40,991 bases of DNA, from positions 1 to 40,991 of IMG/VR virus record IMGVR_UViG_2896607866_000004; one strand, given 5' to 3'. The translations under genes were made by a program, and so were the position numbers. Below are positions 2,488-12,395 of this stretch, piece by piece. Positions within the stretch are counted from its first letter, which is position 1; every line of letters starts with the position of its first letter. The notes beneath the pieces were generated by a model, which was not told where the DNA came from, did not search any database, and worked only from the letters and a program-made list of their open reading frames with translations. The DNA comes from a virus. Taxonomy: Duplodnaviria; Heunggongvirae; Uroviricota; Caudoviricetes.

Positions 2488-2621
2488 CATCCACGGCAGT
2501 GGCACCAGACCTCAAACATTCGTTTCACAATTTCACGACAGTAGAAACCGTCAACATCTCGCGTCAGGTCGTAGTGGTTGCCGTAACGCTGGTGGACCCA
2601 TAGCTCAAACGCTTTATTCAT
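2488..2621 (-). CDS. hypothetical small protein (44 aa)
   Basis: ATG at 2621 with AAGGAAG SD 7 nt upstream; MNKAFELWVHQRYGNHYDLTRDVDGFYCREIVKRMFEVWCHCRG. Not in ORF track (under 60 aa). Confidence 0.3.
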
Positions 2622-2624
2622 TTT

Positions 2625-2867
2625 TTACTTCCTTTGCATTGCGCGTAATTTCTTCAGGTGCTTTTCTTGTTCTGTTTCAGCCAGAATCTTGTGATATTCC
2701 AGGTGGTCAATATGCTCGAACAGGCTACTGAATTCACCGATGCGTACTCGCCCGGTACGTCCGTCCATCCTCCGAAAGAACACTGAGTGCTCAGTACTGC
2801 GAGTAATTTCTACTGGGTATCCGGCTCTGTCTGTGTATATCTGCCCGCGTTGAATCAAAGCGAACAT
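2625..2867 (-). CDS. hypothetical protein (about 80 aa from the internal ATG; ORF track calls 2625..2903)
   Basis: Open frame in the leftward operon. A tiny upstream ORF (2872..2955, GGAGGTG SD) overlaps the long form, so the internal start MFALIQRG… is more plausible. Confidence 0.35.
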   Translation of the reverse strand: MFALIQRGQIYTDRAGYPVEITRSTEHSVFFRRMDGRTGRVRIGEFSSLFEHIDHLEYHKILAETEQEKHLKKLRAMQRK

Positions 2868-2990
2868 GTGGTTATCCCCATCGACAAATCGAGTACACAA
2901 CAAACGCTACTGCGAATACCATCCCCAGAGTTACGATTGCATCAGGCCAGCTCATTGATTCACCTCCTGCGGCGTCCTGGTATTCGATTT

Positions 2991-3560
2991 TCATTCCGGA
3001 TGCTCCTGAGCCACGTTGAAATCGCCATGATCACGACAAGGCATCACAACAAATTCAGGATTGCCATACATTGAGTTGATGATGGAATCAAACTGAATTC
3101 TGACCGCTTGCCCGTCACCGGAGGGACGTAACTGGACGGGAATAAATTTACGCTCACGACCAAACATCTTCTCTGGATAACTCAGGTAACCCGCCTGGAG
3201 CACCGGGTGAGTACAGCGGTCAAACTTTTTCGGAATGATGCGATCCAAATCCGGAAAACAACCGTCCACCAGTTTAATGCCGGTAATGGACAGTCGTCGC
3301 TGAAACTGGTCGCGATGAACAGCGATCGGCTCTTTACTAAAAATCAGCTCTGTCGTTTCGGCTTTGGCCGGGACGCCCCCTTCGAACTGGACAATGATGT
3401 TTTTCTTCGTCCGGATGCCGTGAGCCATGCGCAGTGCCACGGAACCATTGGTTGCCTCAATATGTTTCGGCGTGATGTGAAGACCGTTCAGGTAATAACG
3501 AACGTCGTTTTTAGCAGCGCACACCAGAGCGGCGCGAATAAGTTTTGACTGGATGATCAT
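2991..3560 (-). CDS. hypothetical phage early protein (189 aa)
   Basis: ORF whose start overlaps the stop of the upstream antirepressor-like gene (ATGA at 3557-3560); no family recognised. Confidence 0.5.
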   Translation of the reverse strand: MIIQSKLIRAALVCAAKNDVRYYLNGLHITPKHIEATNGSVALRMAHGIRTKKNIIVQFEGGVPAKAETTELIFSKEPIAVHRDQFQRRLSITGIKLVDGCFPDLDRIIPKKFDRCTHPVLQAGYLSYPEKMFGRERKFIPVQLRPSGDGQAVRIQFDSIINSMYGNPEFVVMPCRDHGDFNVAQEHPE

Positions 3561-4306
3561 GCTTTATCCTCCCATCCGATCACCTGGAAAAGCCCCATCT
3601 TCGGGTGATACCAGCGTGTGCCGCGTGGTTCAGCCTCTGACATCATTTGGTGGAACGCCGCCATAAATGGCTCAAGCTCGACGATAGCCCTGCGAGACAA
3701 CAGACCGTCCGGAGTCATGAATTCGTGGGTGTCTGTAGGAATTTGATATGCGTTCACCAGATTCCGACACTTGGCGTCACTCATTCCACTTTTGGCTACC
3801 ACCTGGCGGTAACCGACATATCCGGCGCGCATTGTGCCGCGTTTGATGTTCTCCACAGCTTTGGTGACCGTTTCGATCTTCTTTTCAACATGACTCAGGC
3901 GCTTTTGCTGGCGAACGGCATCGGCGGCCATTGCAGCGATCATCTCCATTTCCGTCAGCGGCGCGTGAGTTCGGAAATAGCTGTTAACCAGTTCGCGCTG
4001 AACCTGCCAGGCCAGATCGTCGGTGAAGGATTTCACCAACATCAAATAACCGGATTCGACCAGTACAATTCCTGCTGCTGCAAATTTTGAGAAAGTACCG
4101 TCAGGGAGGTGTCGACGAATTTCGTCGGAACCTAATTCGAAGTAGTCTTCCCCTTCAATAAGACGAGACTTGTTTTCGCGGAAATTGCGTCCCGCTGTTC
4201 CGTCCGGGCGTTGGTGCACTTCATCAATCATCGCCAGCGTCACCACGCGCTGACCGCGATATTCGATTACCGGAAACTGTTTGTTGTTGATGGTTACAGT
4301 ATTCAT
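3557..4306 (-). CDS. antirepressor-like protein, ORF6N-type N-terminal domain plus KilAC (ANT) C-terminal domain
   Basis: Start MNTVTINNKQF at 4306 with GGAG SD 6 nt upstream (ORF track long form starts 4381). N-terminus matches the ORF6N/Bro-N pattern; the C-terminal 130 aa are about 75-80% identical to the C-terminus of the 10803..11516 product. Confidence 0.7.
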   Translation of the reverse strand: MNTVTINNKQFPVIEYRGQRVVTLAMIDEVHQRPDGTAGRNFRENKSRLIEGEDYFELGSDEIRRHLPDGTFSKFAAAGIVLVESGYLMLVKSFTDDLAWQVQRELVNSYFRTHAPLTEMEMIAAMAADAVRQQKRLSHVEKKIETVTKAVENIKRGTMRAGYVGYRQVVAKSGMSDAKCRNLVNAYQIPTDTHEFMTPDGLLSRRAIVELEPFMAAFHQMMSEAEPRGTRWYHPKMGLFQVIGWEDKA

Positions 4307-4349: not shown

Positions 4350-5180
4350 TTACTTAACCTGAATAAATGGTGTGTTGGCACCGCTGGTCATGTACTGCAG
4401 CAGTGTGCCGTTCCATTTATTGATGGCTTCCAGCTCCATAACACCGGGGTTCTGGCGCAGAGCTTCACCGCGTAAACGAATTGCATCGGCTTCGGCCTGG
4501 GCTTTTGTGCGAATCGCATCAGCCTGTCCGGCAGCTTCTGCACGCAGCATGTTGGCTTCTGCTTCGCGTTGTTTAACTTCCTGCTCGCGTTGCAGTGTTT
4601 TCTGGTTTGCCGTGACTTTGGCGTTAATGCTGTCGATAACGGTTGGTGGGTACTCTGGCTTACCCACATATGAGAGGCTCATTACCTGAATACCGATGGG
4701 TGTCATTTCTTCCTGGATGTCTTTTAGAGCGGCATCCAGTAATTCAGATTTACCGCCGTCAATAAATTTGTCGGTGGTCATTTTGCTGGCCAGCCGATTG
4801 AGTGCGTCGGCGATCTTCTGGCGCAGGTCTGTATCGGTAATGTCATCCACGCCTTTGCGGTAGGTCTGAAATACCGTGGTAACTTTCGATGGATCAACCT
4901 TATAGGCCACGCCGATGTGATAACCGATGGTTGTGCCGTCGCTCATCTGGAAGCTGAATGGATCATCGTAGGTCTTCATTTGTTTGAAGGTCGGGAAAAT
5001 GTAAACTTCAGTATTCCAGCCAGTCCAGTAGCGACCAACACCGACCACCTCACCGACACCTTTGTCGTCGCCCAGTTTGTTGACTTTGATACCCACATTA
5101 CCTGGTTCAACGCGATCGCAACCTACAAGTCCGAAGACAGCCAGACTGACCGCGAAAACAAGCGCAATTGTTTTTTTCAT
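4350..5180 (-). CDS. SPFH/band-7 (prohibitin-like) domain lipoprotein (276 aa)
   Basis: N-terminal signal peptide with lipobox LVGC; central region resembles SPFH domains by eye; C-terminal coiled-coil-like Ala/Glu/Gln-rich tail; strong GGAGG SD; start overlaps upstream stop (ATGA). Confidence 0.65.
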   Translation of the reverse strand: MKKTIALVFAVSLAVFGLVGCDRVEPGNVGIKVNKLGDDKGVGEVVGVGRYWTGWNTEVYIFPTFKQMKTYDDPFSFQMSDGTTIGYHIGVAYKVDPSKVTTVFQTYRKGVDDITDTDLRQKIADALNRLASKMTTDKFIDGGKSELLDAALKDIQEEMTPIGIQVMSLSYVGKPEYPPTVIDSINAKVTANQKTLQREQEVKQREAEANMLRAEAAGQADAIRTKAQAEADAIRLRGEALRQNPGVMELEAINKWNGTLLQYMTSGANTPFIQVK

Positions 5181-5365
5181 TTTTCCCTCCCGGGGAAAGA
5201 AAGACCCTTATAAATGGCATAAATGCAGGGCGGGGTCAGACACGCCAGAGCAAAGCCAGAAATCACTGCTACCGTATCCTTCATTGATATGAGGGCCGGA
5301 ACAATTAATCCGTAAATACATGCGATAATTGCCAGTGATATAACTATTCTGAAATAAATGTTCAT
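5177..5365 (-). CDS. small integral membrane protein (62 aa), translationally coupled to the SPFH lipoprotein gene
   Basis: AGGAGG SD 3 nt before ATG 5365; two hydrophobic segments; stop overlaps the SPFH gene start. Confidence 0.5.
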   Translation of the reverse strand: MNIYFRIVISLAIIACIYGLIVPALISMKDTVAVISGFALACLTPPCIYAIYKGLSFPGREK

Positions 5366-5425
5366 GGTCCTCCTGATGTATTCGGCTTGCCTTATTTAAT
5401 TGCGTCATGGTTAATTTCGTTTACG

Positions 5426-5818
5426 TCAGAATGGTTTTGTTGCCATCAGTTCGTAATATCCGGCGCTCCATGTGTCATATTTTCTGAACCATTTTTCTGT
5501 ATACTGTTTCCTGGCGATGAGTCTGCGCAGTCGTCTGATTGTTCGCTGGTGTGCGCGGGTATACTCTGTGGTTGATTCTCCACGTTTCCATATCTCATTC
5601 CCGTTGAAGATAAAACGCTTGTCAGGATGGCGTTGTCGGAATCCTGAACGTTCAAAAGCGCGGGTGGTCATAAAGAATGCCAGGTAACGAATTGCCGTTT
5701 TTCGGGTGAGGCATTTTTTTGTTCTTCCGTGGCGTGTTACAAAAAATAACGGGCCGACGGGTGTATCATGTTTCTGTAATGCCTGGTCAATGGCGCTGGC
5801 GGTGCGGTTGTCGATCAT
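5426..5818 (-). CDS. hypothetical basic protein (130 aa)
   Basis: ORF in the leftward operon with start overlapping the upstream gene stop; Arg/Lys-rich. Confidence 0.4.
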   Translation of the reverse strand: MIDNRTASAIDQALQKHDTPVGPLFFVTRHGRTKKCLTRKTAIRYLAFFMTTRAFERSGFRQRHPDKRFIFNGNEIWKRGESTTEYTRAHQRTIRRLRRLIARKQYTEKWFRKYDTWSAGYYELMATKPF

Positions 5819-6033
5819 TTCTTTATTTCCCCCGAATAACGTTCATGACTCATTACTTCCCAGTTCCGGCCGTCGTCTTTCGATAACAGCCGCCAGCGAC
5901 GGTTAACCTTCAGACTGAGATATCCGTTGCGCTGTATCCGATGCGGGAATATACATCGGCATCTGTACCGCCGCAGGACCAGCAACGCCTGCTGGTGGAC
6001 CCACTCAGGAATTCGTGTTGCTGTTAATGTCAC
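5815..6033 (-). CDS. hypothetical protein (72 aa)
   Basis: ORF in operon context with overlapping stop/start to the next gene; no family recognised. Confidence 0.3.
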   Translation of the reverse strand: MTLTATRIPEWVHQQALLVLRRYRCRCIFPHRIQRNGYLSLKVNRRWRLLSKDDGRNWEVMSHERYSGEIKK

Positions 6034-6220
6034 TGGTTTCCTCCTGAGCAGGTGCTGTTATCTGATACCCCGCTCTTTCTGCCAGCCATATGAATGTATC
6101 CATGCTGGCAATCAGCTCTCCATCGCGGACTTTGCAGACACCTGTTACCTGGCCATTTTCAATAGTCATAACGATCTGCACTTTTTCGTGCACAACAGAT
6201 ACAGGGGATAAATTAGCCAT
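6005..6220 (-). CDS. hypothetical protein (71 aa)
   Basis: ORF in operon context; no family recognised. Confidence 0.3.
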   Translation of the reverse strand: MANLSPVSVVHEKVQIVMTIENGQVTGVCKVRDGELIASMDTFIWLAERAGYQITAPAQEETSDINSNTNS

Positions 6221-6579
6221 CAGTTAATTCCTCCGCTGATATATTTTTCTTTCGCGTAATCAATAACCTCTTGTAAAAGGTTGTCTATAATTAACTTTCC
6301 GGTTTCAGCCTGGTATTCAGTATGTTGATTAATCCCGATAGCATTCTGGTATGCAGTTCGGATTTCTGTTTCACCCTCCACTCGACCCAATTCACCACGG
6401 GTAATACCTTCAAAGCGCAACAGCAACTGGTTTATAAACTGTTCTGTTATTTCTATGGTCGTAATGTTCTCATCCAGAAGGTCAACAATAAGCAGATCAC
6501 CACCTGTTTTACGTTTTATTCGATGGAGTGCCGCAACAGCTATACGGCGACGATATGTATTAATGGGTTCATGTGTCAT
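6220..6579 (-). CDS. hypothetical protein (119 aa), first gene of the leftward early operon
   Basis: ATG at 6579 preceded by a 195-bp AT-rich intergenic region (6580-6774). Confidence 0.45.
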   Translation of the reverse strand: MTHEPINTYRRRIAVAALHRIKRKTGGDLLIVDLLDENITTIEITEQFINQLLLRFEGITRGELGRVEGETEIRTAYQNAIGINQHTEYQAETGKLIIDNLLQEVIDYAKEKYISGGIN

Positions 6580-7118
6580 TTGTTATTTCCCGTATGCTTT
6601 ACGCAGAAATAAGCAGGCAATATGCATGTAATTTTCACCGTATTGTGCAATAAGGCAGGCGGTCTTGTGTGATGCCATATTCTTTATTAAAGTCATAATA
6701 AAGCCTCCTGTGGATTAAGGTTGTAACAATCCCCGGTGATAAAACCGCAATAAACGTTCAGGGCATATTTGTTGTTATTGCGCTAATTCTTTTTCGGCAG
6801 CAGCTTTTGAATACTCACATGCAAAGTCCAGAATATCGCTGCCAAGTGCTTTCGTTACGAGGTTACTGGACATATGTAATACCTGTGTTGCATGCAATAA
6901 ATGATAAACATTTACCGCAAATGAATCAGGCTCCAGACAAATGCCTTCGTAATTATCTTGCTGTGAGGTTGTTTCTGTCATTGCTCCTGAAGTGCATGCG
7001 AGCCTGTTTTTGACAATTCTCTTTCCTCTAATCACTATATCGGCAACATCTATTTGAGGTAGCCTGAGTTTAACGGACACTCCTTCCTGAAATAGAATGG
7101 CATCAGAAGGAGCTAATA

Positions 7119-7421
7119 ATGAGCAGAAAAACCCAACGTTACTCTAAAGAGTTCAAAGCCGAAGCTGTCAGAACGGTTCTTGAAAATCAACTTTCGATCA
7201 GTGAAGGCGCTTCCCGATTATCTCTTCCTGAAGGCACTTTAGGACAATGGGTTACCGCCGCCAGAAAAGGGCTCGGTACTCCTGGTTCCCGCACGGTGGC
7301 TGAACTGGAATCTGAAATTCTGCAACTGCGTAAGGCGTTAAATGAAGCTCGCCTTGAGCGCGATATATTAAAAAAAGCAACAGCGTATTTTGCACAGGAG
7401 TCGCTGAAAAATACGCGTTAA
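7119..7421 (+). CDS. IS3-family transposase OrfA (100 aa)
   Basis: MSRKTQRYSKEFKAEAVR… HTH/leucine-zipper-type OrfA; slippery site near its 3' end. Confidence 0.85.
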   Translation: MSRKTQRYSKEFKAEAVRTVLENQLSISEGASRLSLPEGTLGQWVTAARKGLGTPGSRTVAELESEILQLRKALNEARLERDILKKATAYFAQESLKNTR

Positions 7422-7456
7422 TCGAACAATGGCGACAACAATTTCCCATTGAAGCG

Positions 7457-8275
7457 ATGTGTCAGGTATTTGGTGTATCCAGGAGCGGTTATTACAACTG
7501 GGTACAGCATGAACCCTCAGACAGAAAACAAAGTGATGAGCGGCTAAAACTGGAGATTAAGGTGGCACATATCCGCACTCGCGAAACATATGGAACCCGG
7601 CGGCTCCAGACGGAGCTGGCAGAGAATGGCATCATCGTTGGTCGTGACCGACTGGCACGTCTTCGTAAGGAGCTAAGGCTACGCTGTAAGCAGAAACGCA
7701 AGTTCAGAGCGACTACGAACCCGAACCACAATCTGCCAGTTGCGCCAAATCTGCTGAACCAGACGTTCGCTCCTACAGCACCAAATCAGGTCTGGGTGGC
7801 GGACCTGACGTATGTTGCCACACAGGAGGGATGGTTGTACCTCGCTGGCATCAAAGATGTTTATACGTGCGAAATTGTCGGCTACGCCATGGGAGAGCGC
7901 ATGACAAAAGAGCTGACAGGTAAAGCCCTGTTTATGGCGCTCAGGAGCCAGCGCCCACCTGCCGGGCTAATCCACCACTCTGATCGAGGTTCACAGTACT
8001 GCGCATACGATTACCGGGTCATACAGGAGCAGTTTGGTCTGAAAACATCAATGTCGCGTAAAGGTAACTGTTACGACAACGCTCCGATGGAAAGCTTCTG
8101 GGGAACGCTGAAAAATGAGAGCCTGAGCCATTATCGTTTTAATAACCGGGATGAAGCCATCTCAGTAATACGGGAATACATTGAGATTTTCTACAATCGT
8201 CAGCGTCGTCACTCTCGTCTGGGGAATATCTCCCCGGCAGCCTTCAGGGAAAAATATCATCAGATGGCTGCTTAA
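7457..8275 (+). CDS. IS3-family transposase OrfB (DDE catalytic domain), expressed as OrfAB by -1 frameshift
   Basis: 272-aa ORF in the -1 frame relative to OrfA; 100% identical to the OrfB of copy 2. Confidence 0.85.
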   Translation: MCQVFGVSRSGYYNWVQHEPSDRKQSDERLKLEIKVAHIRTRETYGTRRLQTELAENGIIVGRDRLARLRKELRLRCKQKRKFRATTNPNHNLPVAPNLLNQTFAPTAPNQVWVADLTYVATQEGWLYLAGIKDVYTCEIVGYAMGERMTKELTGKALFMALRSQRPPAGLIHHSDRGSQYCAYDYRVIQEQFGLKTSMSRKGNCYDNAPMESFWGTLKNESLSHYRFNNRDEAISVIREYIEIFYNRQRRHSRLGNISPAAFREKYHQMAA

Positions 8276-8534
8276 AAAAGAACAAATGGTAGTGTCCGCT
8301 ATTGCCAGTACACCTCAATTGCCTTTACAACCTCCGGGAGAAGTTCCTGGTTTGTATAATCAAAGTTATCAACATGGAGAACAGTTATGTTTTCGAACTT
8401 TTTCATGGCTTCCTCAGCTGACTTATATGTTCTGCTATATAGCGAGTCTCAGAAGTGTTTTCATATTGAGACTGTTTCCGCAATGATTGATAAAAATGTT
8501 CGCATGTACCTTGAGGGGCGAAGCGGCGATTTTG

Positions 8535-9083
8535 TCACCATTGGTATTGGTTCTTCCGTAGAAGAGCTTCGCGAGATAAGGAGCAAACTTGTTGAGATGC
8601 GTCATGGTGTTGCTGCTCCTCACTTTTTGGTTGCTCCGGAGGAGTAACCTCGCCAGTTAACAGCCACATCGGATCGCAGCCAAGAATATTTGTCAGTGGG
8701 ATAAGCATACTGATAGTTGGTTCATACTCTCCGCTCTCCCACTGGATGATGACTTCTTCATCCACATCGAGCAGCCTGGCGAGTTCGGCGGTTGTTAAGC
8801 CGCAGGCTTCGCGTTGGGTGCGAAGGTTAACCAGCCAGCTTTCAGGGAAGGATTGTTTTTGTTGTGCAGGAGAAGCCGCAGATAGAGCATATTCATGGAT
8901 AAATTCCATTACCTCAATGCCCAGTTCCTTTGAGCGAGCACAATCCAGAAGATGGAATGTGCGTACAGCACTTAGCAAATTTGCAATATTTAATGCAAAG
9001 GAATCAAGTTCTAAGCCCTTAAGCGTAACACAGCCGCAGTTGATAAAATTAGTTGTTTCTGGAGTTGCTTTTAGTGTCTTCAT
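8535..9083 (-). CDS. HTH (XRE-like) domain protein, 182 aa (or about 122 aa from internal ATG 8909)
   Basis: HTH motif …TQREACGLTTAELARLLDVDEEVIIQWESGEYEPTISMLIPL… in the middle of the ORF. Lies immediately downstream of cI, after the cI terminator. Confidence 0.5.
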   Translation of the reverse strand: MKTLKATPETTNFINCGCVTLKGLELDSFALNIANLLSAVRTFHLLDCARSKELGIEVMEFIHEYALSAASPAQQKQSFPESWLVNLRTQREACGLTTAELARLLDVDEEVIIQWESGEYEPTISMLIPLTNILGCDPMWLLTGEVTPPEQPKSEEQQHHDASQQVCSLSREALLRKNQYQW

Positions 9084-9193
9084 ATATCCGCCAACAATTT
9101 TAAATTGAACTTAATCAAGTTATAATTGATGGTGCGATATTATGCTTTGAGAAATAGGCTGTCAAGAAAAAATTGATATCGTGTGTTTTAGGC

Positions 9194-9217
9194 AAAAAAA
9201 AAACGGGCAAAGCCCGT
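9194..9217 (-). terminator. rho-independent terminator downstream of cI
   Basis: On the minus strand, hairpin ACGGGC-TTT-GCCCGT followed by a run of 10 T, 13 bp past the cI stop codon. Confidence 0.6.
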
Positions 9218-9229
9218 TAAAATCAAAGA

Positions 9230-9919
9230 CTAACCAAATCTGTTTATGTTGAATGGTACTGATGAGATCACTTTAGACTGGATATAAAGCAGAGCTAACC
9301 CCTCTTTTTCGATGCTCCATGGTTGATAATTGGGGTTATCAGATAACACCATGATTTTGCTTCCAATTTTTTGAAGCCTTTTCACGTAGCATTCTCCATC
9401 AAAACAAAATGCATAAATACCATCGCCATCAAAATAAGTTACTGTCTTATCAAGAAAAAGAAGGTCACCAGGTGAGATTGTGGGAGCCATACTGTCTCCT
9501 CTGGCGTTACCTATTTCTATATTTTTGAATGCCCGATTTCCAACAAGACGTCGGGCATATTCAGGATCAAGTTCTATTGAGCGCACTACATCTATCAAGT
9601 CACCACGGACATGAGTTCCATCACCGCAACTAAACTCAACATCAAGGACATTAAACACGACGCTATCTGTTCTTGTCTGGTGTTTCTCTTGCGAGGAAAA
9701 GGTTGGTGAGGAGTCTTCACCTAAGAACCAGGATTGTGGATAACCGCTAATCTCTGATAAATGCGCGAGCTTATCACTCCGTGGAAATGTTTTTCCTGTT
9801 GTCCAGTACTGCACTGATTGCGCACTCACACCTAACTTGCGGGCCAGTTGAGCCTGAGTCCATCCTTTTGCTTTCAGCATCGCGGCTATTCGATTTTCCG
9901 TGTTTTTGACGTTCTTCAT
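9230..9919 (-). CDS. cI: CI-type repressor (N-terminal HTH, C-terminal S24 LexA-like peptidase domain)
   Basis: HTH …GWTQAQLARKLGVSAQSVQYWTTGK…; C-terminal GDSMAPTI… with downstream Lys (…YVKRL…) typical of the Ser/Lys dyad. First ATG is at 9919 (ORF track extends to 9925 via TTG). Divergent from the cro-like gene. Confidence 0.85.
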   Translation of the reverse strand: MKNVKNTENRIAAMLKAKGWTQAQLARKLGVSAQSVQYWTTGKTFPRSDKLAHLSEISGYPQSWFLGEDSSPTFSSQEKHQTRTDSVVFNVLDVEFSCGDGTHVRGDLIDVVRSIELDPEYARRLVGNRAFKNIEIGNARGDSMAPTISPGDLLFLDKTVTYFDGDGIYAFCFDGECYVKRLQKIGSKIMVLSDNPNYQPWSIEKEGLALLYIQSKVISSVPFNINRFG

Positions 9920-10052
9920 GACCAAATCCTGTGGGTTTCTTTACAAGGATAAATCTTTACTTGATTTTAGTGTATTCGATCCTTTTGCAACTTGCATGTT
10001 AATTTAAACTTGATGTATTCTTGATTTATAAAGTTAATGTTGGTGCTTTGTT
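9920..10052. promoter_or_regulatory. divergent cI/cro promoter-operator region (OR-like)
   Basis: 133-bp AT-rich intergenic region between divergent cI and cro-like genes. Contains an 11-bp palindrome TGCAAcTTGCA (about 9986-9996) and three CTTGAT motifs (about 9958-10026). Individual operators not assigned. Confidence 0.5.
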
Positions 10053-10325
10053 ATGAAAGGAAATGATTACGACAAACTTCGTGCATTAATTGCGCAAAAT
10101 GCCATAGCGCGAAATCTGGGTGTGACACCGCAAGCGGTGAATCAGTGGTTTTCAAAAAGCACAATTCCTGCCCGTTTCGTTTTACGCGTATGTGAAGTAG
10201 TTGCATGTAAGGTCACGCCGCATGGCTTAAGGCCAGATCTTTATCCTCACCCTGAAGATGGAATTCCTGATTCGTTACGCAAAATTTCAAATCCAAGCTT
10301 AGCGCACACAGAGGATGAGAAGTGA
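10053..10325 (+). CDS. cro: Cro-like HTH protein (90 aa)
   Basis: Small ORF divergent from cI; motif …LGVTPQAVNQWFSKSTIPARFVLRV… resembles Cro/YdaS-type HTH. Confidence 0.6.
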   Translation: MKGNDYDKLRALIAQNAIARNLGVTPQAVNQWFSKSTIPARFVLRVCEVVACKVTPHGLRPDLYPHPEDGIPDSLRKISNPSLAHTEDEK

Positions 10326-10395
10326 TGGTGGTGATATGAGCGAAAAAATAACTATTAAATACGATGGGGCAACCATTTCGATTGCCCCAATCACA

Positions 10396-10689
10396 TTAGC
10401 GTTCGCTGAGAAGTTGTTGGTAAGCCTTAAAGGATGCGAACTGCATTCTACCTTTGGCATTGAGTCCAATGCCTTCGCTTGTACACCAGGTGATGAACTC
10501 GGTTGTATCCGCTTCAACTTTAATAACTCGTTGCCCGCTTCTTTCGACACGCTTAATCAATTTTTCAGCGTCGTGTTTCCACTCGGTGTAACTGTCGGAG
10601 AGCACATCTGCATCAGTAAAAATCTTTTTGAACTCATGATACTGAATAGCATCGCGAAACCAGAATAAACCAACGGCCTGAACTTTCAT
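10396..10689 (-). CDS. hypothetical protein (97 aa), opposite in orientation to the surrounding rightward operon
   Basis: ATG 10689 preceded by a near-perfect SD (AAGGAGGT, 6-nt spacer); balanced charged composition. Overlapping plus-strand ORF 10315..10668 is the less likely alternative. Confidence 0.5.
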   Translation of the reverse strand: MKVQAVGLFWFRDAIQYHEFKKIFTDADVLSDSYTEWKHDAEKLIKRVERSGQRVIKVEADTTEFITWCTSEGIGLNAKGRMQFASFKAYQQLLSER

Positions 10690-11730: not shown

Positions 11731-12039
11731 TTACACGAAGCGGATCTGGAGTTTTTTCCCTGTTGCGCGTGCAAATTTTTTCAGTGTGGCAAATGATGGT
11801 CCGCTGACACCTGAGGCAAGATTGCTTTCCATTCTGGTGATGGCGGTTGCTTTGGTACCCATGCGTTCAGCAACTTCAGCCTGGGTGAGACCAGCTTCTT
11901 TGCGTGCGGCCAGCATTTCATCAAGCAGTGCGAACTCGTCGGCGATGGCGTCGTATTCTGCTTTAAAAGCCGGGTCATCCATCCATTTAGCTGCCATTTC
12001 ATCGTGTGTCATGATTGGTGGGTTACGTTTACCAGTCAT
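11731..12039 (-). CDS. HigA-like antitoxin (XRE-family HTH, 102 aa)
   Basis: HTH …LTQAEVAERMGTKATAITRMESNLASG…; AGGAGGT SD; start overlaps the 3' end of the upstream toxin gene by 11 nt. Confidence 0.7.
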   Translation of the reverse strand: MTGKRNPPIMTHDEMAAKWMDDPAFKAEYDAIADEFALLDEMLAARKEAGLTQAEVAERMGTKATAITRMESNLASGVSGPSFATLKKFARATGKKLQIRFV

Positions 12040-12358
12040 GCTTAACCTCCTTCATTCTGGTTTCAGCTTTTTTACGCTCAGCTGGTGGAGTTTTTTGAGT
12101 TTTCTTGATGAAGCTGTGCAGCATGATGATGCGCTTCCCTGTCAGTGTGCAGTAAAAAACGCGGGCAATGCCATCGCTGCCTTTAATCCGAAGCTCAAAA
12201 AGCCCATCACCAAAGGCGCTGGTGTGAGGTTCTCCGAGATTGCTGCCGTATACCTTCATGCGTTCAACAAGATGCTGGTATCTGGCACGCATACTCAATG
12301 GAAGCTGATCGACCTCCAGTCGGACCTCTTCACTGTAGTATTCGATAGTGTAGTTCAT
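12029..12358 (-). CDS. HigB-like toxin (RelE/ParE superfamily, Gp49-type), about 109 aa
   Basis: …YYSEEVRLEVDQLPLSMRARYQHLVERMKVYGSNLGEPHTSAFGDGLFELRIKGSDGIARVFYCTLTGKRIIMLHSFIKKTQKTP… resembles phage Gp49/HigB-type toxins; toxin precedes antitoxin. Start placed at internal ATG 12358 (ORF track uses TTG 12394). Confidence 0.6.
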   Translation of the reverse strand: MNYTIEYYSEEVRLEVDQLPLSMRARYQHLVERMKVYGSNLGEPHTSAFGDGLFELRIKGSDGIARVFYCTLTGKRIIMLHSFIKKTQKTPPAERKKAETRMKEVKHDW

Positions 12359-12395
12359 ACAGCAAAACATAACAAAATCGTTATATCTGCACAAT

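Follow-up and report, generated by a model that had tools for sequence, protein, structure and literature searches.

Are the genes that directly follow the repressor gene cI in a lambdoid prophage defence cargo that is expressed in the lysogen, or do they belong to the early regulatory programme of the phage itself? We address this question for the IMG/VR virus record IMGVR_UViG_2896607866_000004 (Caudoviricetes), the whole 40,991-nucleotide (nt) stretch of which is referred to here as the window. In this window, cI is followed on the same strand by a gene for a 182-amino-acid (aa) helix-turn-helix (HTH) protein (the HTH gene; 8535-9083, minus strand) and by a small gene, orfS, which is split by a copy of the insertion sequence (IS) IS600. 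An earlier reading of the region (the sequence-only reading) placed this pair at a position equivalent to that of lambda rex, as lysogen-expressed cargo, and suggested an uncharacterised two-gene module—a regulator or antitoxin with its effector—that has been inactivated. That interpretation is partly supported by our analysis. The genes do form an uncharacterised and conserved unit of two related genes, but the parallel with rex and the assignment to defence or toxin–antitoxin (TA) functions are not supported. We propose that the region is an early-left regulatory module, composed of an HTH adaptor and an HTH-less paralogue, which was inactivated by IS600 in a defective prophage; we think that this proposal stands an even chance of being correct.

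A pL-like promoter between cI and the HTH gene

The strong terminator that had been noted after cI is present (a 7-bp GC-rich stem followed by ten T at 9218-9193) and, from its structure, cI transcripts should end there. Beyond it, a sigma-70 promoter with a 17-nt spacer and 10 of 12 consensus positions reads into the HTH gene. The 15-bp palindrome TCAAG-N5-ATTGA occurs in exact form on both sides of this promoter, once overlapping the -35 element (9162-9176) and once just downstream of the -10 element (9115-9129), with a weaker copy (two mismatches) at 9094-9108. The same motif recurs in the spacer between cI and cro, at 9950-9964 and 9999-10013 (one mismatch each) and at 10010-10024 (two mismatches). 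When at most one mismatch is allowed, there are six matches in the 41-kb window, four of which fall within the two spacers that flank cI; these spacers are 146 bp (cI to the HTH gene) and 127 bp (cI to cro) in length, or 273 bp together.

A promoter that is flanked by the palindromes of the cI–cro spacer therefore looks like the pL promoter and oL operator of lambda. The order of elements is also that of lambda—cI, terminator, operator-flanked leftward promoter, first early gene—and in both cases the operators are common to the cI–cro spacer. As the equivalent of pL and oL lies between the pair and cI, the pair would stand at the position of lambda N, and not at that of rex; by the same signature, the HTH gene would be the first gene of a CI-repressed early-left operon. 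From the shared motif, we infer that its promoter should be repressed by CI in the lysogen.

Related loci from IMG/VR (denoted by three-digit L numbers) and phage phiP27 show the same arrangement with other motifs. In phiP27, TGATAC/GTATCA-type repeats are common to the repressor–cro spacer and the spacer upstream of gene L10, and both spacers likewise contain ATAG-N6-CTAT in L010, TAGCA-N3-TGCTA in L011 and a TCAAGTATACTTGA-like site in L022. When spacers were compared by their 12-mers, cognate pairs scored highest in these four types; the window type and its close relative L005 cross-matched, and L019 had no 12-mer common to its two spacers, both of which contain short CGATA repeats that are visible by eye. 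Readable -35/-10 pairs that point towards the HTH gene are found in the cI–HTH spacers of five other immunity types.

The likeness to lambda concerns the position of the gene and not its product. Unlike lambda N, the HTH protein lacks an arginine-rich motif and has an XRE fold that is acidic. Nor is its leader nut-like: it is about 50 nt in length, is filled by operator repeats and has no Rfam match, and a scan of positions 5000-10500 against Rfam gave chance-level matches only. The HTH protein is not an N-type antiterminator.

An acidic HTH protein with a variable N-terminal module

An internal XRE-type HTH had been read from the 182-aa sequence, and profile and structure searches agree. PF01381 (HTH_3) matches residues 87-141 with 42.2 bits (cutoff, 23), and the AlphaFold2 (AF2) model comprises a helical hairpin (residues 23-69; predicted local distance difference test (pLDDT) of about 80), a five-helix XRE fold (residues 81-143) and a disordered tail. 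In both score and fold, this is an XRE/Cro-C1 HTH protein. Its nearest structures are P22 c2 (Foldseek; target-normalised TM-score of 0.89-0.92, root-mean-square deviation of 0.9), 434 repressor and 434 Cro, and the fold search matched the generic HTH domain only.

The HTH domain is, however, acidic (isoelectric point (pI) of 4.05, net charge of -9), as compared with a pI of about 10 for 434 Cro, P22 c2 and the N-terminal domain of the window's own cI product. The corresponding domain (HTH1) has a pI of 4.05-4.86 in 28/28 aligned family members and of about 4.1-4.2 in distant relatives, and the HTH core is about 90% identical across the family. Residues D108-E109-E110 align with S31-N32-V33 of P22 c2, at the start of the recognition helix, and D108 and E109 are invariant in the family. 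The basic or polar DNA-contact surface that 434 Cro and P22 c2 present on this helix is missing.

These features bear on the alternative that the HTH protein is an ordinary DNA-binding early factor—CII-like, or a secondary repressor—and that orfS and a third gene described below, orfX, are unrelated small early genes. We consider this doubtful, although it carries real weight. The protein matches phrog_4836 (7.2e-78), which is labelled 'CII-like regulator', but the label is an annotation and no tested function. The HTH_3 match above the gathering score and the structural neighbours also favour DNA binding, whereas the charge of -9 and the invariant acidic residues at recognition-helix positions argue against it. 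A DNA target that is itself conserved would explain why HTH1 is so highly conserved from one immunity type to another; a search of two local intergenic stretches for palindromes that could be this target returned only trivial 8-mers. Most relatives have a second, more neutral HTH, but the window protein does not. Finally, the homology between the HTH protein and orfS, and the modules that they share, argue for functionally related genes.

The N-terminal module of the HTH protein (pI of 6.0, net charge of -1) behaves differently from the HTH core. It exists in at least six types, each of which is paired with a single type of upstream cI, without exception (6 x 6 types, 84 loci). The module therefore belongs to the immunity cassette. 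The imm434 and imm21 cassettes are similar in that their boundary lies within or beside the first early gene and the specificity part travels with cI; in imm21, N and the nut sites travel with cI. The pairing could reflect specificity for CI, Cro or the operators, or mere linkage. A SinI-like relation to cI, in which the module would be a paralogue of part of the cognate repressor, was considered and rejected after a 7 x 7 BLASTP comparison detected no similarity.

orfS, a predicted HTH-less paralogue

Removal of the IS and one copy of its target duplication, ATT, restores a 121-aa minus-strand open reading frame (ORF) with its ATG at 8406 and its stop at 6775, as the sequence-only reading had described. 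Along all of its residues (1-121/121), the restored protein aligns with phrog_5451 (E = 4.7e-80), and it shares about 92% identity with phiP27 L08. PGAP annotates only a 68-aa version in IS-free Escherichia coli, a version that the IS would miss. We rejected this shorter reading: the first 47 residues are conserved at the protein level, with homologues down to 45% identity, and they also form an independent module in other proteins. On this conservation we take the 121-aa reading to be real.

The family of orfS had not been recognised, and we found no match in Pfam, NCBIfam, PADLOC or a PDB profile search. An exhaustive profile search recovered 44 representatives among 1.84 billion proteins; a scan of genome contigs with P0121 gave 117 pattern matches, none of which was confirmed. 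The protein is acidic (pI of 5.1), non-hydrophobic and apparently soluble, and contains no catalytic motif. In its AF2 model, a disordered linker joins an alpha/beta module (residues 6-47) to a C-terminal helical hairpin (residues 74-120). Residues 69-115 are 40% identical to residues 24-70 of the HTH protein over 47 aa (E = 2e-9), an alignment that marks the hairpin as paralogous to the N-terminal module of the HTH protein. Moreover, within the same family the two orfS modules are found singly or jointly, and also as N-terminal fusions to one, two or three HTH domains. Given this homology and module sharing, the pair therefore looks like a regulator and its HTH-less paralogue.

Such an arrangement has precedents in SinR/SinI of Bacillus subtilis and AimC/AimX of arbitrium phages, in which an XRE regulator with a helical oligomerisation module adjoins an HTH-less homologous small protein (bioRxiv 10.1101/2025.11.23.689978). 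From its predicted modules, orfS would likewise be a small protein that is homologous to the helical module and lacks an HTH. In contrast to both precedents, the hairpin lies N-terminal to the HTH, the HTH is acidic, orfS has an additional alpha/beta module and hairpin types are unmatched across phages, and the heteromer is putative. We rejected the idea that the hairpin type of orfS matches the N-terminal module type of its neighbour, as the same orfS (at least 93% identical) is found with six N-terminal module types. This lack of co-variation argues against a strictly cognate, SinI-like heterodimer.

Linkage and distribution of the pair

Conserved linkage in other prophages was a check proposed with the sequence-only reading. 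We retrieved 80 IMG/VR loci that encode the small protein, 79 of which had enough upstream sequence to be informative. In all of these (79/79), a gene of the HTH family lies directly upstream of orfS on the same strand. Two apparent exceptions were resolved: L030 has a truncated HTH ORF, and L065 has an IS3-type insertion between the two genes. The stop codon of the HTH gene and the start of orfS overlap at some loci. The linked pair is also present in Salmonella and Citrobacter relatives, and the genes of distant relatives come directly after an S24 cI and before genes for small HTH-less proteins that draw on the same module repertoire. One metagenomic phage (L092, 1983-3687) has three family genes in tandem after cI, encoding the helical module with an acidic HTH (191 aa), the orfS alpha/beta module with two HTH domains (205 aa) and the orfS alpha/beta module with a hairpin (116 aa).

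The module was matched in 277/5426 complete E. coli genomes and is found in phiP27, many Stx1/Stx2 (Shiga toxin) phages and Salmonella and Citrobacter prophages. The commonest relative of the HTH protein is a two-HTH form of 230 aa, which is present on at least 1000 contigs. Direct homologues are phiP27 L10/L09/L08 and PHROGs 4836, 4739, 5451, 4587 and 6104 (the last being orfX), all of which are annotated only as hypothetical or 'CII-like'; a literature search on phiP27 L10 and PhiR49 found nothing. The HTH core of phiP27 L10 is 74% identical to that of the window protein, and phiP27 has another N-terminal module that matches its other repressor, together with a diverged spacer and a truncated orfX frame. 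Across six immunity types, the pair is the near-universal first unit of the early-left operon, and it does not occupy a variable cargo slot.

We can now weigh the interpretation from which the question arose, that the pair is a two-gene cargo for defence, exclusion or TA functions that sits at the rex position, is expressed in the lysogen and has here been put out of action by the IS. It is true that the pair adjoins cI, as do lambda RexAB and paaR2-paaA2-parE2, all immediately downstream and on the same strand, and that an XRE HTH gene followed by a small gene is a common TA layout. The paaR2-paaA2-parE2 genes are a precedent for cargo that is co-transcribed with a cI-like repressor gene (PMC8630535). 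The gene in the effector position is the one disrupted whereas the HTH gene is intact, and the N-terminal modules and tails of the HTH family are diverse. Unlike RexAB and paaR2-paaA2-parE2, however, the pair is set apart from cI by a strong terminator and a separate operator-controlled promoter, an arrangement in which co-transcription with cI would not be expected, and neither protein has homology to RexA, RexB, ParE, PaaA2 or any catalogued defence protein. In PADLOC, the 182-aa protein had only generic matches of its HTH (RmrA, HTH_VI and the N-terminal HTH of capH), all below family cut-offs. The downstream gene of a type II TA system would encode a toxin, but orfS matches no toxin family and does not look toxin-like: its composition is as described above and its modules are common to regulators. 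A pair that is near-universal at the start of the operon across six immunity types and a region in which IS insertions recur in other genomes do not fit this interpretation either, and we regard it as very unlikely.

orfX, a third gene on the opposite strand

Between the HTH gene and orfS, a plus-strand gene that the sequence-only reading missed, orfX, runs antisense to the operon. It shares 20 nt at its 5' end with the start of orfS, and at its 3' end it runs into the tail of the HTH gene. GGAG is located 7-10 nt before its ATG, and a perfect TATAAT is found at 8353-8358. The gene is intact in IS-free relatives. Among 18 distinct sequences, 21/41 variable sites are at third codon positions, and the changes are 21 synonymous and 22 nonsynonymous. 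Homologues from Salmonella and Citrobacter, which are 57-64% identical, have the same length, an invariant core and the same three-gene geometry. Judged by this pattern, orfX is a real gene, although it has no match in Pfam, NCBIfam, PADLOC or a PDB profile search.

In the overlapping tail of the HTH gene, half of the changes are at second codon positions. Annotated lengths range from 153 to 215 aa among near-identical relatives of the HTH protein (for example, 164 aa in L001 (5269-5763), 182 aa in L002 (5215-5763) and 215 aa in P0003), and the 164-aa and 215-aa forms depart from the 182-aa form in the C-terminal tail, the part that overlaps orfX. The codon pattern suggests that this tail is largely incidental and apparently without selection at the protein level.

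orfX could itself be the functionally important cargo: a moron-like gene that is expressed from its own promoter in the lysogen and either hinders pL transcription, through antisense effects or collision, or confers a phenotype on the lysogen, with the extensions of the flanking ORFs being incidental. Opposite orientation within an early operon is typical of morons. The protein retains invariant core residues in homologues with as little as 57% identity, the substitutions fit the orfX frame better than that of the HTH tail, and a TATAAT and a GGAG precede the gene. The gene is also an indel module, missing from Stx2d-type phages and from L013-type loci, in which the HTH stop overlaps the orfS start. 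Nevertheless, we consider this explanation quite unlikely, as we found no -35 element before orfX and no terminator after it, and neither a family nor a structural match for its product, and as orfX accompanies every one of the six cI types with about 95% identity (compare PMC10432266).

The comparison invited by the last point is with transcription factor–small ORF (TF-smORF) modules, in which, as here, an XRE factor is encoded beside a counter-oriented small ORF close to the repressor gene. In TF-smORF modules (Silpe et al. 2023, PMC10432266), the genes for factor and smORF are divergently oriented, and the smORF product specifically inactivates the cognate cI repressor. By contrast, the HTH gene and orfX are convergent, and the HTH gene appears to be CI-repressed and not to be an independent sensory input. 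As orfX is alike across six cI types, it is no immunity-specific antirepressor of the TF-smORF kind, and the region is not an induction module of that class.

A proposed role in the CI/Cro switch

We propose that the HTH gene, orfX and orfS form the promoter-proximal end of a CI-repressed, pL-type operon at the position of lambda N. With the usual DNA-contact residues lost, the HTH protein would be no classical operator-binding repressor; the acidic XRE-fold protein may instead work mainly by contacting other proteins, tuning the CI/Cro switch as an early adaptor or an anti-repressor-like factor. orfS may modulate the HTH protein or compete with it for the same partner, in the way of SinI with SinR or AimX with AimC. 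In the window, the insertion in orfS would have put this unit out of action and probably also the early-left genes beyond it.

Several observations weigh against this proposal. The case for CI repression of the HTH-gene promoter is one of motif sharing. The 1:1 pairing of N-terminal modules with cI types could be physical linkage within a non-homologous cassette, and the N-terminal modules have no sequence similarity to their cognate cI. The same N-terminal module is found with different orfS hairpins in phiP27 and L006. In many relatives a second HTH is present that is less acidic and may itself bind DNA; the function of the family may thus include DNA binding. The AF2 models of the HTH protein and orfS are moderately confident (mean pLDDT of 64 and 69, respectively), a fold search of the orfS model against PDB and BFVD returned nothing below E = 0.1, and the accessory modules had no informative structural neighbours in fold searches.

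A more specific scheme, which we hold to be unlikely, casts the acidic-HTH protein as an immunity-specific commitment factor or anti-repressor, the hairpin of which recognises the cognate CI or Cro while its DNA-mimicking HTH blocks or redirects the bound partner, with orfS and antisense transcription from orfX as antagonists. If true, this would define an unrecognised component of the lysis–lysogeny switch in a large group of N-less lambdoid phages, including Stx-converting phages. Under the broader proposal of an early-left regulatory module, an action of the HTH protein and orfS on the CI/Cro switch would affect the commitment of prophages to induction, again including that of Shiga-toxin phages. 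In either case, the HTH gene, orfS and orfX constitute a common module at the first early-left position with uncharacterised functions; the window contains an IS-damaged copy in a defective prophage and no candidate defence system.

Table 1 Features around cI in the window (coordinates in nt; strand given where assigned).
Feature	Position	Strand	Description
Next genes of the leftward operon	5426..6579	-	phrog_1737, phrog_340, phrog_1886
orfS, 3' fragment	6775..7054	-	Rest of alpha/beta module, linker, C-terminal hairpin
IS600 (IS3 family), copy 1	7055-8317	+	1263 bp; orfA 7119-7421, orfB 7457-8275
orfS, 5' fragment	8321..8406	-	Codons 1-28 and part of codon 29
orfX	8387..8647	+	86 aa; phrog_6104; antisense to the operon
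HTH gene, C-terminal tail	8535..8648	-	aa 146-182; predicted disordered; overlaps orfX
HTH gene, XRE/434-Cro-like HTH fold	8649..8849	-	aa 79-145; acidic; D108-E109-E110 at recognition-helix positions
HTH gene, N-terminal module	8850..9083	-	aa 1-78; predicted helical hairpin, residues 23-69
oL-like operator cluster	9094..9176	.	TCAAG-N5-ATTGA copies
pL-like sigma-70 promoter into HTH gene	9137..9165	-	TTGACA 9165-9160, TAATAT 9142-9137
Intrinsic terminator of cI transcript	9193..9218	-	7-bp stem (5 GC pairs), 3-nt loop, ten T
cI-type repressor gene	9230..9919	-	690 bp; HTH and Peptidase_S24; WP_000800136-like; sets immunity type
oR-like operator cluster in cI–cro spacer	9950..10024	.	Same TCAAG-N5-ATTGA motif

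IS600 and the state of the prophage

The element within orfS is IS600, a member of the IS3 family: it is 99.7% identical to annotated IS600 over 1263 bp, encodes orfA (HTH_Tnp_1) and orfB (rve), has imperfect terminal inverted repeats (TGAGGT.../...ACCTCA) and is flanked by an identical 3-bp target-site duplication, ATT (7052-7054 and 8318-8320). It splits orfS at codon 29/30, and the gene is inactivated, as had been concluded previously. The element is oriented against the early-left operon, and its polarity, we infer, probably blocks transcription of the downstream early-left genes. It ends 69 bp upstream of the orfX ATG and reads towards orfX.

A second, inverted copy of IS600 (20170-21433, 1264 bp, minus strand) is identical to the first over 1225 nt and differs by one A, in a run just after the orfB stop that is A6 in one copy and A7 in the other (8275-8282 versus 20206-20213). 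Its 3-bp flanks differ (ATG versus CTG). We examined the sequences on its two sides (19254-19883 and 21512-23068). The adjoining prohead protease/major capsid gene has lost about 156 N-terminal codons, and the late regulator, lysis, terminase and portal genes are absent between the replication genes and this capsid gene, which implies an IS-associated deletion. With these genes missing, the prophage, which is of the Rac-integrase/phiP27-like lambdoid type, is therefore defective. We considered whether the two copies had inverted the intervening 12 kb and rejected this, as the duplication around copy 1 is perfect and the ORF that it interrupts can be restored.

Other genomes have independent IS insertions in the same operon. 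An IS3-family element (2619-4000) lies between the HTH gene and orfS in L065, from which orfX has been removed; in L091 (E. coli FDAARGOS_943), IS600 is inserted further downstream (1565-2721), with a deletion that extends up to xis. Recurrent insertion in this small region fits genes that are silent in the lysogen and dispensable in the prophage.

Neighbouring genes

In the early-right region, on the opposite strand, a gene for a Gp49/HigB-like protein (PF05973, 8.9e-26) is followed by one for a 102-aa XRE HTH protein (11731-12394, minus strand); by their predicted domains, these resemble a canonical TA pair, and the same combination is found in L007. Beyond phrog_1886, the early-left operon continues with SPFH, ORF6N, xis and int genes. 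The SPFH/Band_7 protein (276 aa) is encoded after an overlapping 62-aa hydrophobic ORF (4350-5365, minus strand), and its gene is conserved in the related prophages L001, L006 and L007.

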